DNA of 64,000 bases from positions 211,648-275,647 of the forward strand of contig JAJYLR010000001.1 in NCBI GenBank assembly GCA_021787535.1. Direction: 5' to 3'. Shown here in pieces: positions 19,221 through 53,989 of the stretch. The position numbers and the translations under genes are program-made. The notes under the pieces were generated by a model. It was not told the DNA's origin. It was given only the letters and a program-made list of their open reading frames with translations, and searched no databases. Source of the stretch: a bacterium (GTDB taxonomy: Bacteria; Patescibacteriota; CPR2; UBA1875; JAJYID01). The stretch's first letter is position 1, and each line of letters begins with the position of its first letter.

Positions 19221-20624
19221 GTGAAAAAAACTAAAATTATAGCCACTCTTGGGCCATCCTCGGATGACCCAAAAATTATGGAAAAACTGATAGACGCGGG
19301 AGCCAATGTCTTCCGTATCAATTTTTCGCATGCCACAGAAGAGGAAAGGGTTGAAAGAGTTAAAGACTTAAGAGCAATCGAGAAGGCAAGCGGAAAACCG
19401 GTAACGATTTTACAGGATCTGCAGGGACCGAAAATACGCGTCGGTAAGATTGACGGTTCTATTGGATTAACCGAAGGAAAAGAAATTACTCTTACTATAG
19501 ATACACCGGCCTATGGCGAAGTTCCTGTTCAATATCAAGGTATAGTTAGCGACGTTGAACGCGGAAACCGTATTCTTCTGGTTGACGGAAAAATCGTTCT
19601 TGAAGTCATTTCAAAGGATAAGAAAAAGATTAGATGCAAAGTTAAAACCGGCGGCACGCTGATCTCAAACAAAGGAATTAATCTGCCGGACTCCAGCATT
19701 TCTCTGCCGGCTCTTTCCGAGAAAGATCTCTATGATTTAAAGTTTGGTCTGGCAAATGATTTCGACTACATTGCACTTTCATTCGTTAAGTCAGCAGATG
19801 ACATTTTGCATCTTAAAAACATAATCAAAAAAGCAGGAAAGAAGACCAAGGTGATCGCTAAAATTGAGCGTCACGAGGCCGTGAAAAACATCGATGAGAT
19901 TATTGAGGCCGCGGATGCGGTTATGGTAGCCAGAGGCGATCTGGGGATCGAAGTTTCTTTGGCTAGCGTTCCGCTTCTTCAAAAAACGATTATCGAAAAA
20001 TGCAATGCTGCCGGAAAGCCGGTGATAGTGGCAACCCAAATGTTAGATTCAATGGTGCGAAATCCGGTATCAACCAGAGCCGAGACGTCCGATATCGCAA
20101 ATGCTATTTTAGACGGAGCCGACGCGGTGATGCTTTCTGATGAGACATCTGTCGGCAAGTATCCGATAAATGCGGTAAAGGTCATGCGCAAAATCGCTTT
20201 GACAGTTGAAAAATGGTCCAATGACAGCCAGATTATCATCGGGGAAGACGCTATCAAAAAAATCGATTCTACCTCAGAAGCTATTGGAAAGAGTGCTTGT
20301 AAGCTGGCTTCGGAGATAAGAGCTAAGGTGATTATTAACGCAACTGCCAGAGGTAAAACGACTAAAAATGTTTCGAGATTCCGTCCGCACTGCCCGATAA
20401 TTTCTGTGACTCATACCTTGAAAACCGCCCGGGAGCTGAATCTGGTTTGGGGAGTTTATCCGTATGTTCTCAAATACAAAACTGTTCGGGAAATGAGCCG
20501 AAAATCTACGGAAATCGCTAAGTCACTAAAGCTTGTCAAGAAGGGTGATAAACTCGTGATAATCAGCGGTGAGGAAGTGGGCGTGGAAGGCGGTACGAAC
20601 ATGGTTAAAGTTAAAGAGCTCTAG
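19221..20624 (+). CDS. pyk: Pyruvate kinase
   Basis: KTKIIATLGP, DLQGPKIR, MVARGDLG, ATQMLDSM, DGADAVMLS. Confidence 0.97.
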   Translation: MKKTKIIATLGPSSDDPKIMEKLIDAGANVFRINFSHATEEERVERVKDLRAIEKASGKPVTILQDLQGPKIRVGKIDGSIGLTEGKEITLTIDTPAYGEVPVQYQGIVSDVERGNRILLVDGKIVLEVISKDKKKIRCKVKTGGTLISNKGINLPDSSISLPALSEKDLYDLKFGLANDFDYIALSFVKSADDILHLKNIIKKAGKKTKVIAKIERHEAVKNIDEIIEAADAVMVARGDLGIEVSLASVPLLQKTIIEKCNAAGKPVIVATQMLDSMVRNPVSTRAETSDIANAILDGADAVMLSDETSVGKYPINAVKVMRKIALTVEKWSNDSQIIIGEDAIKKIDSTSEAIGKSACKLASEIRAKVIINATARGKTTKNVSRFRPHCPIISVTHTLKTARELNLVWGVYPYVLKYKTVREMSRKSTEIAKSLKLVKKGDKLVIISGEEVGVEGGTNMVKVKEL

Positions 20625-20645: not shown

Positions 20646-20678
20646 AAAGGGCCGCGTTGACTTCATGCTGCCCTTTTC
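20646..20678. terminator. Probable bidirectional terminator
   Basis: aaaagggc...gcccttttc imperfect hairpin between convergent genes. Confidence 0.55.
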
Positions 20679-20698
20679 GGATTCTGGACGGAGTGAGA

Positions 20699-21061
20699 TT
20701 ATGAGATGGCTTTTCGAAACTCTGTTTCAAAGTTTTCCCGCAATAAAATGGGTAATTTGTTAAAATTTCTTGTCCACAGATTATACTTGTCGGCGAAAGC
20801 ATTTGCTTTTATAAGCACATCTGTAAGGATGCCATGAGTGGCTGCGTTCTCAAATTGCTCCAGAAAAAATTTCTTGACTTTGTTGCCCAGGTGATGAAGT
20901 AATAGGCAGAAGTCCCAGATTTTTTCGGTATATTCACCGAATATTGGTTCTTTGACTTGCTCAAAGATAGGCCAATCACACGGTCCAAACTCCGAAGGTT
21001 CTGTCTCCTGGCTGTTCTTTCGTATTCCCAATTCAGAACCCCTTTTTTTATCGTGGTGCAT
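20699..21061 (-). CDS. Hypothetical protein
   Basis: GGGGAGGA SD upstream of ATG on minus strand; fills intergenic gap. Confidence 0.55.
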   Translation of the reverse strand: MHHDKKRGSELGIRKNSQETEPSEFGPCDWPIFEQVKEPIFGEYTEKIWDFCLLLHHLGNKVKKFFLEQFENAATHGILTDVLIKANAFADKYNLWTRNFNKLPILLRENFETEFRKAIS

Positions 21062-21173
21062 CTATCCTCCCCTAGATAGATTTGCATTTCATAAGAAGTA
21101 TACAACAAAACCTTTAAACAGGCAAACGTTTCTGCTTCAAACTGAGCCAAAAAAGTGGTAAAATGTTCTGGCT

Positions 21174-21965
21174 ATGGATAAATATATTAAAGATTTAGAT
21201 AAAATCCTTTCCGAAGAGTTTCTTTCATTAAAAAAAGAGATTAAGAGCCAAAAGCTCGGGGTTCTTTTTTCCGGAGGAGTAGACAGTTCCCTTATTGCCA
21301 GGTTAGGCGAAGATACCGGACTAAACCCCATTCTTTACAGTTTCGGAACCGAAAAATCCAAAGACAGGCAGTTTGTTTTTGACTTTGCGAGCGATATGAA
21401 AATGCCGCTTGTTTTTGAAGAGGTTAAAACCGGTGAGATTGAAAAAAATATTCCATTGATTAGAGAAGAACTGGCTAAAATCGGCGAGGACCCGAATCCT
21501 ATGCAAGTCGCTCTTGCAGTCGGAGTTTATCTGGTTGGGAAAAAGGCAAAAGCAGACAATGTTAAATTTATGCTGTGCGGGCAGGGGTCTGATGAGCTTT
21601 TTGCCGGATACAAGAAATATGAGGGGTTAAAAGACGATGATTTGCAAAAATCTTTGGAGCGCGACATTGAATCTGTAATGAGATCGGATATCGCCCGCGA
21701 TGCCCATATGCTATCGCTTTCCGGCATTAAACTTTTCGCGCCGTATACCAGCCAAGAATTTATCGACTATGCCCTGAAAATCCCGCTTGAATATAAAGTT
21801 TCGGGCGATACAAAAAAATTTATAATTCGCAAAGTCGCGGAAAAACGCGGACTCCCCGACTATATTTGCGAACGTCCTAAAAATGCCATGCAGTATTCAT
21901 CCGGAATCCAGAAAGTTGTCTCAAAAGTTTGTAAAGCGGAAAGGCAAAATGGACAAACTGCTTGA
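21174..21965 (+). CDS. Asparagine-synthetase C-terminal (PP-loop ATP pyrophosphatase) domain protein lacking the glutaminase domain
   Basis: SGGVDSS PP-loop, GQGSDELFAGY, KFIIRK, RPKNAMQYSSG; no N-terminal Cys/Ntn domain. Confidence 0.85.
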   Translation: MDKYIKDLDKILSEEFLSLKKEIKSQKLGVLFSGGVDSSLIARLGEDTGLNPILYSFGTEKSKDRQFVFDFASDMKMPLVFEEVKTGEIEKNIPLIREELAKIGEDPNPMQVALAVGVYLVGKKAKADNVKFMLCGQGSDELFAGYKKYEGLKDDDLQKSLERDIESVMRSDIARDAHMLSLSGIKLFAPYTSQEFIDYALKIPLEYKVSGDTKKFIIRKVAEKRGLPDYICERPKNAMQYSSGIQKVVSKVCKAERQNGQTA

Positions 21966-23658
21966 AAAAGTAATTCAAGAATCCATTGGCCGAAAAATAG
22001 TTTCAGATGAGGATTTTCTAACTTTAATTAAAGAAAATTTCAAAGGCAAGTCTGAGGCGAAGTTCCCCTCAAATATTGAAATAAGGAAGAAGTACCGGTG
22101 CATGGTTAATAGAGGGATAATACCGCCAAGTCCGGCGCTGGAAAAAATATTGGTTACCAAAAAGATGCGTTCTCTCTCCGGTGTGGCTGTTATCACGGTC
22201 TTGACCAAACCTTGGCCGTGTCCGGGCAAATGCCTGTATTGCCCGGTTCAGGAAAACGTGCCAAAGAGCTATCTTGCAAGCGAACCGGCAGTGATGAGAG
22301 CGATTTTGTGCGAGTACGATCCCTACAAACAGGTGAAAGCTCGGCTAGATTCACTGGCACTAGAAGGCCATCCGACTGACAAGATTGAACTCATTGTTAT
22401 CGGCGGGACATTTTCAGTGTTACCAAGAGATTATCAGGAAGAATACATAAAGTTATGCCTCGATGCATTGAACGGTACAAAAAGCAAAGATCTAAACAAG
22501 GCAAAAAGGGCAAATGAAACAGCCGAGCATCGTCTAGTCGGGCTGACACTCGAAACTCGGCCTGACTATATTACGAAAAAAGAAGTTGAGCGGATGAGAT
22601 ATCTTGGTACGACAAGAGTCGAGCTGGGTGTGCAGTCTGTTTTTGATGAAGTTCTAAAATTTAACAAACGTGGTGCGACTAATGAAGATACAATTTGTGC
22701 GACGCAACTTTTGAAGGATGCGGGACTAAAAATCTGCTACCATATGATGCCCGGACTGCCGGATTCGGATTTAAAAAAAGACCTGGAAATGTTTAAAGTT
22801 ATTTTTACTGATCCGAGATTTCAGCCGGATTACGTAAAGATTTATCCCTGTATGGTAACGAAGGGTTCAGAACTTTATGAGTTTTGGAAATCCGGAAAGT
22901 ATAGGCCTTACACCGACAAGGAATTAGAAAGTTTAATCTGCGAAATTAAAAAGACCGTGCCATATCAAGTGCGGATCATGCGGCTTATTCGCGATATCCC
23001 TTCCACAGATATTGAGGCAGGTTCAAAAGTGACAAATTTACGGCAAAACGTGCAAAAGAAATTACAATCAGAAGGGGTGAGGTGTAAATGTATCCGCTGT
23101 CGGGAAGCGGGATTATTAAAGAAAGATGAAAAAGTAAAAAGTAAAAATTTCTCCTTTGTCATCCCGAGCGACTTCGCGGAGCGACGAGTCGAGGGATCCC
23201 TTCCAGAAAATGATCAATTCCTAATCTCTAATGGCCAATCAATCTCCAATGATCAAAAATCAAGAAGAATGGATTCTGGGCAAGCCAGAATGACATTGTT
23301 GCGTGATGAGTATGAGGCGAGTGGCGGAAAGGAATTTTTTTTGAGTTACGAGACGGGGGATAGAAGTGTCCTGTCCGCTCTTTTACGCTTAAGATTACCC
23401 GGCGAAACGTATTTGCCGGAGTTAAAAGATGCGGCTCTAATCCGCGAAGTCCATACCTATGGCCAGCAGATCGAAATCGGCAAAAGGGGCGATACTCAGC
23501 ACAAAGGGTTGGGCAAAAAATTAATTACGAAAGCTGAGCAGTTGGCGTGCAAAAACGGTTACAAAAAAGCTGCCGTCATCTCCGGGGTCGGTGTCCGTGA
23601 TTATTACCGAAAACTTGGTTATGAACTTGATGGTGAGTATATGATCAAATTGTTATAA
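21949..23658 (+). CDS. elp3: Elp3-family tRNA uridine(34) acetyltransferase (radical SAM + KAT)
   Basis: RSLSGVA, CPGKCLYCP, PKSY, GGTF, ETRPD, KIYP, RLIRDIP, CIRCRE, IREVHTYG, QHKGLG, ISGVGVRDYY. Confidence 0.93.
   Translation: MDKLLEKVIQESIGRKIVSDEDFLTLIKENFKGKSEAKFPSNIEIRKKYRCMVNRGIIPPSPALEKILVTKKMRSLSGVAVITVLTKPWPCPGKCLYCPVQENVPKSYLASEPAVMRAILCEYDPYKQVKARLDSLALEGHPTDKIELIVIGGTFSVLPRDYQEEYIKLCLDALNGTKSKDLNKAKRANETAEHRLVGLTLETRPDYITKKEVERMRYLGTTRVELGVQSVFDEVLKFNKRGATNEDTICATQLLKDAGLKICYHMMPGLPDSDLKKDLEMFKVIFTDPRFQPDYVKIYPCMVTKGSELYEFWKSGKYRPYTDKELESLICEIKKTVPYQVRIMRLIRDIPSTDIEAGSKVTNLRQNVQKKLQSEGVRCKCIRCREAGLLKKDEKVKSKNFSFVIPSDFAERRVEGSLPENDQFLISNGQSISNDQKSRRMDSGQARMTLLRDEYEASGGKEFFLSYETGDRSVLSALLRLRLPGETYLPELKDAALIREVHTYGQQIEIGKRGDTQHKGLGKKLITKAEQLACKNGYKKAAVISGVGVRDYYRKLGYELDGEYMIKLL
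23157..23295. repeat. Composite TGTCAT...ATGACA element with internal heptamer repeats, read in frame within elp3
   Basis: tgtcatcccgagcga...gtcgagggatccc, AATnnnn heptamers, ggattctgggcaagccagaatgaca. Confidence 0.8.
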
Positions 23659-23784
23659 ATTTGATTTTCATGGTATAATAAAGACATCGTTCAAAGGCGA
23701 AAAGTTGTCGTTTTAAAAAACGAAGCACTTGGACATCAAATAGTGGGTGCTTTTTTGGTTTACAACCCGGGAAAGGAACACAAA

Positions 23785-24168
23785 ATGGCAGGAATAGATT
23801 ACAATGATGCAAACGAACAAGAATTGCATATTTGTAATGGATGCGGGGCAGACGCTGTACAGATTGTCAAGGAGTATTGGATGAGTCAAGGCATTGTCAG
23901 GCTTCATTTGGAATGTGAAGCTTGTACCAGAAAAGCTTTTCCGGTTGTTTCCGTCAAGGAGGCAGATAAGCTGCGCTTAGCGATCCATAGACGCCGAGAA
24001 AATGCAAGACGAATACGGCAAAGAGCGGAAGAAGAGAGGCAACTATTTCTAAGTCTAGCGGATGTGGAAGCTAAGGGTGAAGCTTTTCTTGCGCAAAGGC
24101 ATGCGGACTTTGAAGCGTTCTATGCGAATTGGAAGAAAGAGCATCCTATCGACCCAATTGAAAGGTGA
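23785..24168 (+). CDS. Hypothetical Zn-ribbon protein
   Basis: CNGC...CEAC then helical charged tail; AAAGGA SD; own promoter and terminator. Confidence 0.6.
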   Translation: MAGIDYNDANEQELHICNGCGADAVQIVKEYWMSQGIVRLHLECEACTRKAFPVVSVKEADKLRLAIHRRRENARRIRQRAEEERQLFLSLADVEAKGEAFLAQRHADFEAFYANWKKEHPIDPIER

Positions 24169-24198
24169 AAAATAAAAGGGTGGCGGCAAGACCCGCAG

Positions 24199-24225
24199 GA
24201 AAGCCCTCAGGGGCTTTCTTTTTTC
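24199..24225 (+). terminator. Intrinsic terminator
   Basis: gaaagccc-tcag-gggctttc plus T-tract. Confidence 0.75.
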
Positions 24226-24392: not shown

Positions 24393-24734
24393 ATGAGACG
24401 CGTGGCGGAACATTGTACAGACCTTAAGAATATTGATAGGTGTCCCATATGCGGATCGAGAGCTATCAGAATGACCGGCAGCTGCAGGGACGATCGAGAT
24501 CCGGTCTGGATGCTCCTCTTCTTTTGCCACGACTGCGAGGGCGCATACCCGCGCGGCCCGGTAACTTCAGAGCTGAAGGCGGAAATTGCAAGAAAGCATC
24601 TGAGTGAGGAGGGATGTGCCTCGGAGCAGGCGGACAAGGAAATGATGAGAGATGAGGAAGAACTTGCAAGATCTCGTGAGAAAGGGGAAGAATTGACGCT
24701 TGAAATGATGTTTCAAGAATTGGCCCGGAGGTGA
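24393..24734 (+). CDS. Hypothetical Zn-ribbon protein
   Basis: CPIC...CHDC; AAGGAGGT SD; TTGACA promoter at 24226. Confidence 0.6.
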   Translation: MRRVAEHCTDLKNIDRCPICGSRAIRMTGSCRDDRDPVWMLLFFCHDCEGAYPRGPVTSELKAEIARKHLSEEGCASEQADKEMMRDEEELARSREKGEELTLEMMFQELARR

Positions 24735-51746: not shown

Positions 51747-53282
<1,536 letters not shown>

Positions 53283-53536
53283 TAGGGAGATTACCGATTT
53301 ATCGGATTACTTCCAGGTCGAGTCCGTATTTATTACGGGCATGGACTGTGGCATTTTTCTCTACTTTCCAGATTTTCAAGGGTATAAAGAATTGATTTTC
53401 ATGCTAAAAACGGTTAAAATATTGTAGTGAAAAACCGTTTTTTGTTTTGTAAAATTTGAACATTGCCATTGATAATTTGTCTAGCATTCCTCTGCTACCA
53501 AACCAACAAGGATATTCGGATTTTGAATTTCATTTT

Positions 53537-53613
53537 GCGCGTGTAGCTCAGCTGGTTAGAGCGCCACACTGATAATGTGGAGGTCCCTGGTTCAAGTCCA
53601 GGCACGCGCACCA
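53537..53613 (+). tRNA. tRNA-Ile(GAT)
   Basis: gcgcgtg/cacgcgc acceptor stem, ccaca-ctGATaa-tgtgg, CCA. Confidence 0.96.
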
Positions 53614-53642
53614 TATCTAACATTTAAGATATAGGAGATGAG

Positions 53643-53882
53643 ATGGCATTATTACTAAGAATTGTCGTAAGTTTAGTGGTAATATTTATTGGAGTTGTTT
53701 TGCTTGCGAGGTCATATAAAGTTGTACATATGATCGGGACTAACAACTGGGCTGAACAGCATCTGGGATCGGGTGGAAGCTATACACTAGTAAAGCTCAT
53801 TGGTCTAGTATTTATCATTTTGGCTTTGCTGACAATGTTTGGTATCATTAAACCTTTTGACATAATATTTCCAAGCAAATAG
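53643..53882 (+). CDS. Small two-TM membrane protein between tRNA-Ile and tRNA-Ala
   Basis: AGGAG SD; two hydrophobic helices flanking WAEQHLGSGG. Confidence 0.75.
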   Translation: MALLLRIVVSLVVIFIGVVLLARSYKVVHMIGTNNWAEQHLGSGGSYTLVKLIGLVFIILALLTMFGIIKPFDIIFPSK

Positions 53883-53912
53883 AGACTAAAGTAATTTCAT
53901 TATTGAATTTAT

Positions 53913-53989
53913 GGGCCCGTAGCTCAGTTGGCTAGAGCGCCTCGTTTGCACCGAGGAGGTCGCAGGTTCGATTCCTGTCGGGTCCACCA
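53913..53989 (+). tRNA. tRNA-Ala(TGC)
   Basis: gggcccg/cgggtcc stem with G3:U70, cctcg-ttTGCac-cgagg, CCA. Confidence 0.96.

Follow-up and report, generated by a model that had tools for sequence, protein, structure and literature searches.

A short asparagine-synthetase-like protein encoded beside elp3 in Patescibacteria is a candidate cm5U34 amide ligase

The window analysed here is a stretch of 64,000 nt (positions 211,648 to 275,647 of contig JAJYLR010000001.1) from a patescibacterial genome of 945 kb that is 97% complete (G000), and it holds a two-gene module in which a short gene resembling asparagine synthetase (AsnB) runs into elp3. Passages of PMC6367351 and PMC4678810 state that Elp3 makes 5-carboxymethyluridine at the tRNA wobble position (cm5U34) and that Trm9 methylates the cm5U carboxylate. 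Our data make the AsnB-like protein a candidate for the enzyme that would turn this carboxylate into the amide 5-carbamoylmethyluridine (ncm5U). The first-pass annotation had described a PP-loop open reading frame (ORF) of 263 aa, lacking an N-terminal nucleophile (Ntn) glutaminase domain and overlapping elp3 by 17 nt, and this description was confirmed, with SGGVDSS at residues 33-39 and GQGSDELFAGY at residues 136-146. The module consists of the following features.

21174-21965, + strand: AsnB-like gene, 263 aa, PP-loop; consists solely of a synthetase (adenylation) domain of AsnB type; cm5U34 amide ligase candidate.
21949-23658, + strand: elp3, 569 aa; radical S-adenosylmethionine (SAM)/lysine acetyltransferase (KAT) tRNA U34 carboxymethyltransferase; its first 17 nt overlap the upstream gene.
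21136-21164, + strand: sigma-70-like promoter with extended -10 (TG at 21156-21157, TAAAAT at 21159-21164), 9 nt before the ATG.

The elp3 ATG lies at 21949, so that the two genes share 21949-21965. In two other tandem loci (L004 and L084) the AsnB-like gene likewise stops, overlapping elp3 by 8 nt, and run X1, which may be the source run, has a contig that covers 21185-21986 with 0 differences; hence, the split into two genes is real. The upstream -10 that the first-pass annotation placed at 21159 is present as TG-n-TAAAAT and is accompanied by a -35-like element at 21136 (9/12 matches), but promoter-like sites in the region are no commoner than chance (8 found, 6.5 +/- 2.5 expected). An identical extended -10 sits 9-11 nt before the ATG in 3/3 tandem loci, and this recurrence close to the start codon suggests a single leaderless transcript carrying both genes.

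The only Pfam match of the 263-aa protein is Asn_synthase (PF00733, 127.6 bits, cut-off 21), and it misses the AsnB family profiles TIGR01536 (124.7 bits against a cut-off of 267.1) and PRK09431 (100.4 against 499). It has no glutamine amidotransferase (GATase) domain, and PF13537 had 0 matches across the genome. The predicted model has a pLDDT (predicted local distance difference test score) of 95, and Foldseek aligned it to human and E. coli asparagine synthetase domains with template modelling (TM) scores of 0.79-0.84. The QueC profile PF06508 was not matched, and a weak QueC profile match had an E value of 0.39. Among the 37 rows of the bacterial clade to which the protein belongs, the PP-loop residues S33, G35, D37 and S38 are invariant, and K236, equivalent to Lys-466 of human asparagine synthetase (ASNS), is kept in 36. 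D64, D140, D172 and R175 are also retained, the last three corresponding to human Asp-367, Asp-400 and Arg-403. Different residues occupy the positions of human T336, T337, R339 and E364, which align with M110, Q111, A113 and Q137; the family carries Met, Gln and Ala or Ser at the first three, and at Q137 Gln in 34/37 rows and Glu in 0/37. By alignment, the residues for adenylation remain and those that bind aspartate have been lost. A family motif, KxAxQY[SG], follows the catalytic Lys at 236-242.

In our trees, the family and archaeal proteins together form a clade that is separated from canonical AsnB with 95-99 support, and the family's nearest long relatives are GATase-AsnB-Dph6 fusions. 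The larger AsnB tree kept 167 of 233 rows, and a second comprised 73 hand-picked rows. Duplicate, partial and contig-end loci and five canonical AsnB rows with short domain matches were left out, and about 80% of the long Bathyarchaeia-like loci, chosen by random draw, were dropped from the 167-row tree. Profile scores, residues and trees together suggest that the protein is not an asparagine synthetase but a candidate new variant of AsnB-like amide ligases.

In GTDB genomes and metagenomes, our scans located 160 related loci. In viruses, only four weak loci turned up. At 34 of the 160, elp3 is adjacent: 31 are divergent (head-to-head), 2 tandem-overlapping and 1 fused. All 34 fall in the single bacterial clade of 37 loci, and one of the 34 duplicates another locus. 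Of the three unlinked members, two (L010 and L016) begin no more than 210 bp from the end of a contig; the third (L021) is truly unlinked, and its genome has elp3 elsewhere. Many of the loci titled 'Gammaproteobacteria' share neighbours with Roizmanbacteria loci, and these titles are probably mislabels. The adjacency is therefore not unique to this genome, and the co-occurrence with elp3 that the first-pass annotation had proposed to check is found in three architectures, in fusions and in an either/or relation with Trm9 in three phyla. A control sample of 401 Patescibacteria, 151 of them with Elp3, gave a consistent picture. The short AsnB-like protein lies within 5 kb of elp3 in 6/6 carriers; other AsnB-like matches occur in 67 genomes, 21 of which have Elp3, and 0 lie within 5 kb of elp3.

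Two fusions join the partners in one chain. The first (L145/P0243) is an AsnB-like plus Elp3 protein of 816 aa in a cluster of three members, and the second (P0170, NCBI MFH1823542.1) has 723 aa, with its AsnB part in a DPANN-type clade. No further AsnB fusion was found among eight long open frames around Elp3 checked in other genomes. Just downstream of the first fused gene lies a reverse-transcriptase-like ORF of 329 aa with a YMDD motif (L145:5028-6017).

Where the AsnB-like gene is missing from a genome, elp3 usually has a methyltransferase gene as its divergent neighbour. The PDB entry that matches this methyltransferase best is 5CM2, which is Trm9 (E 2.5e-29), and equivalents of the essential yeast Trm9 residues R29, D72, H116, W145, W168, R241 and N271 are kept: both R, D, H and one W are invariant in 18/18 sequences, the other W is found in 16/18 and N in 17/18. 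Judged by these sequence features, the methyltransferase is a Trm9 orthologue. Among 150 Elp3-bearing Patescibacteria with listed coordinates, a Trm9-like gene occurs in 117, and in 94 it lies within 1.5 kb of elp3, always on the opposite strand. It is adjacent in 0/6 AsnB-like carriers. Searches found no full Trm9 in this genome, and none of full length in 31 further carrier genomes, where the best match was partial (9.6e-25). In all, a full Trm9 was found in 0/37 carrier genomes. One Trm9-like match (G133, E 4.6e-31) has no Trm9 motifs and is unlinked; it is counted in the tally of any Trm9 match and not as Trm9 itself.

Four Elp3-bearing relatives of the same family all have trm9 within 1.5 kb of elp3, and in the two compared in detail trm9 sits at the same locus flanked by pyk and pyrG. 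In a tree of 105 Elp3 sequences, from which rows with <380 aligned residues were left out, the Elp3 of this genome clusters among those Elp3s of its family that are linked to Trm9. AsnB and Trm9 partners are interleaved on this tree, and no locus has both. The AsnB partner needs nine changes, at least seven of which are forced by strong branches.

The divergent elp3-trm9 pair itself (L198-L237, L282-L301), present in Patescibacteria and Chloroflexota, predicts that these bacteria would carry a eukaryote-like methyl ester, 5-methoxycarbonylmethyluridine (mcm5U34). Our full-text literature searches found no published account of the pair in Patescibacteria; clustering of elp3 and trm9 in Sulfolobus is noted in a passage of PMC6144793.

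The exchange extends to Chloroflexota, where 23/121 genomes have Elp3. Apart from the AsnB-like carrier (G405), 22/22 of these have a Trm9-like gene, 19 of them divergent and adjacent to elp3, and no full Trm9 was found in the carrier, which was the centre of the Chloroflexota sample and not a random draw. An initial 5/5 co-occurrence in this phylum was dropped, as the motifs in three of the genomes (G450, G474 and G498) are those of canonical AsnB, which leaves G405 and G518 as the only two with members of the family. In Thermoplasmatota, where the genes are unlinked, the 94 genomes with Elp3 divide into 32 with only the AsnB-like gene, 51 with only Trm9, 7 with both and 4 with neither, and the AsnB-like gene is found in 0/17 genomes without Elp3. 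The short forms of Thermoplasmatota group next to the bacterial clade in the trees. Passages of PMC6144793 report ncm5U in tRNA-Leu(UAG) of T. acidophilum, and that in trm9 mutants of H. volcanii cm5U vanishes into an unidentified product.

The Elp3 of this genome scores 577.5 bits against TIGR01211 (cut-off 350) and has the radical-SAM motif CPGKCLYC and the KAT motifs REVHTYG, QHKGLG and YYRKLGY. MnmA is present and MnmG was not found in the genome, which leaves Elp3 as the one route detected for modifying C5 of U34; there are 13 U34 tRNA genes. A non-discriminating aspartyl-tRNA synthetase (AspRS) and GatB are present and an asparaginyl-tRNA synthetase (AsnRS) was not found in the genome, and hence free asparagine has no route into protein. 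The NAD synthetase (L003) is also of the glutaminase-less type. The tRNA-Arg anticodons include GCG and TCG and no ACG, an archaea-like set without inosine.

AsnB domains adenylate a carboxylate and then amidate it. Because the family repeatedly takes the place of Trm9 next to elp3, is found fused to Elp3 and complements Trm9 genome-wide, we consider it very probable that the protein acts on the same carboxylate as Trm9, that of cm5U. Given the AsnB-type fold, the amide ncm5U is the simplest product, and on balance we judge the protein likely to be an ammonia-dependent ligase converting cm5U34 to ncm5U. Elp3, whose activity is established and whose gene is intact here, would make cm5U34. The PP-loop domain, as fold and conserved residues suggest, would then adenylate the cm5 carboxylate with release of pyrophosphate, and free ammonia would attack the acyl-adenylate to give the carbamoylmethyl amide; ammonia is proposed as nucleophile because the protein has no glutaminase domain. 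Since MnmA is present, the 2-thiolated form ncm5s2U would be expected on Lys, Glu and Gln tRNAs. The ligase would stand in for Trm9, which would form the methyl ester mcm5U in sister lineages, in neutralising the same carboxylate. The two-step wobble-uridine pathway that the first-pass annotation had put forward thus gains support from the elp3 linkage, the fusions and the either/or pattern with Trm9. The module is real and conserved, and its AsnB-like protein is a strong candidate for the long-missing enzyme.

Several observations weigh against this proposal. Genomic context points to the substrate group, and not to the nucleophile or the final product, and neither enzymatic nor nucleoside data for any Patescibacteria were found. 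According to a passage of PMC6748925, E364Q inactivates human ASNS, and Q137 occupies this very position, so adenylation must run differently or on another substrate. The overall charge is only mildly basic (isoelectric point 7.6 here against a family median of 8.8), and the C-termini of some canonical AsnB proteins are no less basic. Around the archaeal-type loci, elp3 was found at 0/123; the surrounding sequence reached at least 2 kb to either side for 57 of the 126 loci that lack elp3. Some Thermoplasmatota carry two AsnB-like paralogues, with neighbours including folC and purB. In Patescibacteria, 28 Elp3-bearing genomes have neither Trm9 nor the AsnB-like gene, which implies that no finishing enzyme is strictly required; a Trm9-like match without Elp3 occurs in 12 genomes. 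The elp3-linked AsnB domains fall at three places on the trees, and a claim of independent origins was abandoned because a single clade was not rejected (approximately unbiased test, p=0.42); hence, repeated association is argued from the Elp3 tree instead. Moreover, related genomes are not independent, so that Fisher p-values would exaggerate the association; we give counts and place no weight on p-values, and many of the metagenome-assembled genomes are incomplete. The prediction of a complex between the AsnB-like protein and Elp3 gave no answer (score 0.00) and weighs neither way.

The Patescibacteria with neither gene include family f22 (17 genomes) and others (L270-L280); in these, cm5U may persist as such or be finished by a third enzyme. 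In two Thermoplasmatota (L335 and L337), a short AsnB-like gene lies directly before folC-like and endonuclease III-like genes (names from sequence reading), and a second paralogue is located elsewhere in the genome; one of the two paralogues may have another substrate.

Other readings of the family differ in product, in nucleophile or in substrate. QueC reaches the nitrile preQ0 via PP-loop chemistry, and the AsnB-like enzyme, if it likewise ran two adenylation rounds on the same substrate, would carry cm5U through ncm5U to the nitrile 5-cyanomethyluridine (cnm5U). We regard this as unlikely, since the fold is ASNS-like and not QueC-like and, to our knowledge, AsnB-family chemistry goes no further than amides or lactams. 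The H. volcanii and M. jannaschii controls have PF00733 and S. acidocaldarius does not, an agreement in favour of the nitrile that holds at the Pfam level only; the distribution of cnm5U is given in passages of PMC3895270 and PMC7668247, and a passage of PMC7694415 describes the route to cnm5U as unknown. However, the Thermoplasmatota short forms adjoin the bacterial clade, and the Thermoplasma nucleoside reported in PMC6144793 is the amide ncm5U. A nucleophile other than ammonia, such as an amino acid or polyamine coupled to cm5U to give an undescribed wobble amide, would explain why the glutaminase domain is missing from protein and genome. It would also suit the remodelled pocket (M110, Q111, A113 and Q137), and AsnB relatives such as beta-lactam synthetase and CarA, matched in our searches, use amine nucleophiles. 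Yet many archaeal members keep the GATase domain (PF13537), which points to ammonia, and the glutaminase-less NAD synthetase indicates that free-ammonia enzymes fit this cell; we think another amine improbable.

The tRNA itself might not be the substrate. AsnB homologues amidate varied targets, peptidoglycan among them, and the archaeal relatives have no link to elp3 and in many cases are fused to Dph6, so the protein could act on another protein, a cofactor or a cell-wall precursor, with its place beside elp3 due to co-transfer or shared regulation. This reading leaves unexplained the repeated exchange with Trm9 at one slot, the two fusions and the unlinked either/or pattern of Thermoplasmatota. 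Moreover, the grouping of this Elp3 with the Trm9-linked Elp3s of its own family indicates that the pair was not co-transferred, and we give a non-tRNA substrate little chance. An ordinary ammonia-dependent asparagine synthetase making free asparagine is what the database annotation and the best hidden Markov model matches, all to AsnB families, would imply. We consider it highly improbable: the scores are far under the family cut-offs (124.7 against 267.1 bits for TIGR01536), the essential Glu-364 is replaced and the T336 and R339 positions are lost, the clade is separate, and the cell has the AspRS and GatB route without AsnRS.

The proposed ligase can be compared with several known systems. 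With E. coli AsnB (1CT9) and human ASNS (6GQ3, 8SUE) it shares the PP-loop fold, SGGxDS and the equivalents of Asp-367, Asp-400, Arg-403 and Lys-466. Unlike them, it has no Ntn glutaminase domain, ends about 25 residues past the catalytic Lys, replaces Glu-364 by Gln, has lost Thr-336 and Arg-339, carries its own KxAxQY[SG] motif, and is linked to elp3 in a separate clade. Its resemblance to the Elp3 and Trm9(-Trm112) system lies in the proposed second step on the same carboxylate and in the divergent slot beside elp3 in Patescibacteria and Chloroflexota. The folds, however, are unrelated, and ATP-dependent amide formation would take the place of SAM-dependent methyl esterification. Dph6, the diphthine-ammonia ligase, also has a PP-loop and uses ammonia to amidate a carboxylate that belongs to a modification of the translation machinery, and it is often fused to the AsnB-like family in DPANN archaea; it belongs to another PP-loop family (PF01902), and its substrate is elongation factor 2 (EF-2), which bacteria are not known to modify in this manner. 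In QueC, TilS/TiaS and beta-lactam synthetase, a nitrogen nucleophile likewise attacks after adenylation or ATP activation, in TilS/TiaS at tRNA position 34, but their substrates and products differ, and the PP-loop similarity to QueC and TilS is weak (E above 0.1). The archaeal proteins annotated as 'asparagine synthetase' in Bathyarchaeia, Thermoplasmatota, DPANN and Asgard share the clade and motifs (GQG/GLG...KxAxQY), and differ in being mostly unlinked to elp3; many are fused to Dph6 or have a GATase domain, be it intact or degenerate, and our searches found no tested function for them.

DPANN archaea have an abundance of GATase-AsnB-Dph6 fusions, each about 700 aa long (P0122-P0167; P0388-P0504). 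One such fusion (L166, G171:C26:539-2581) occurs in a Patescibacteria genome that also has elp3-trm9, and P0212 is an AsnB-Dph6-amine oxidase fusion of 1151 aa.

The first-pass annotation had described the enzyme converting cm5U to ncm5U as unassigned. This agrees with the passages of PMC3110198, PMC10275265, PMC11571800 and PMC7694415 that we consulted, dating from 2011 to 2024, which name none. Our full-text searches, with subscription papers and supplements outside their coverage, found no published link between an AsnB-like protein and either ncm5U or Elp3. ASNSD1 is listed as predicted by similarity only in a passage of PMC9140057. No ASNSD1 or YML096W sequence was among the relatives retrieved, and no paper in our searches ties either to tRNA. 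These eukaryotic proteins presumably resemble the KxAxQY clade. We offer tentatively, and would sooner doubt than assert, a wider reading in which the whole clade, with the archaeal 'asparagine synthetases' and the DPANN AsnB-Dph6 fusions, and ASNSD1/YML096W would make ncm5U, and open the way to cnm5U, in all three domains. If this were true, Patescibacteria would run a eukaryote-like wobble pathway of Elp3 with Trm9 or the ligase, replacing MnmEG. Our data also suggest that many archaeal 'asparagine synthetases' are misannotated. The elp3-trm9 gene pair is widespread in Patescibacteria and Chloroflexota. A small single-domain candidate, a minimal two-gene pathway and natural fusions make the question of the missing enzyme testable.

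The first-pass annotation had also pointed to tRNA-Ala(UGC) as a plausible substrate. The gene is in the window, at 53913, but it is an ordinary rRNA-spacer gene 30 kb from the module, just after 16S (51747-53281) and beside tRNA-Ile, and we therefore reject it as evidence on the substrate. The order from 51747 to 53989 is 16S, tRNA-Ile and tRNA-Ala, Rfam found no 23S in the remaining 10 kb of the window, and the rRNA genes of this genome may be unlinked.

Two further features lie in and beside the module.

19221-20624: pyruvate kinase gene (pyk), upstream flank of the module.
23153-23295, + strand: in-frame repeat insertion in elp3, composed of genome-wide short repeats; not part of the pathway.

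The insertion adds about 50 aa between the radical-SAM and KAT domains of Elp3, and a 23-nt part of it has 53 matches in the genome at no more than two mismatches. Divergent from the module, a 120-aa ORF on the - strand (20699-21061) has no Pfam match, and it may be variable, because a related-strain contig in run X1 skips 20655-21054. Between elp3 and pyrG, two small ORFs of CxxC type (23743-24168, which is Cys-rich, and 24393-24734) have no Pfam match, and similar ORFs are present in relatives having either partner, Trm9 or the AsnB-like protein. A terminator-like hairpin is located at 24197-24220.

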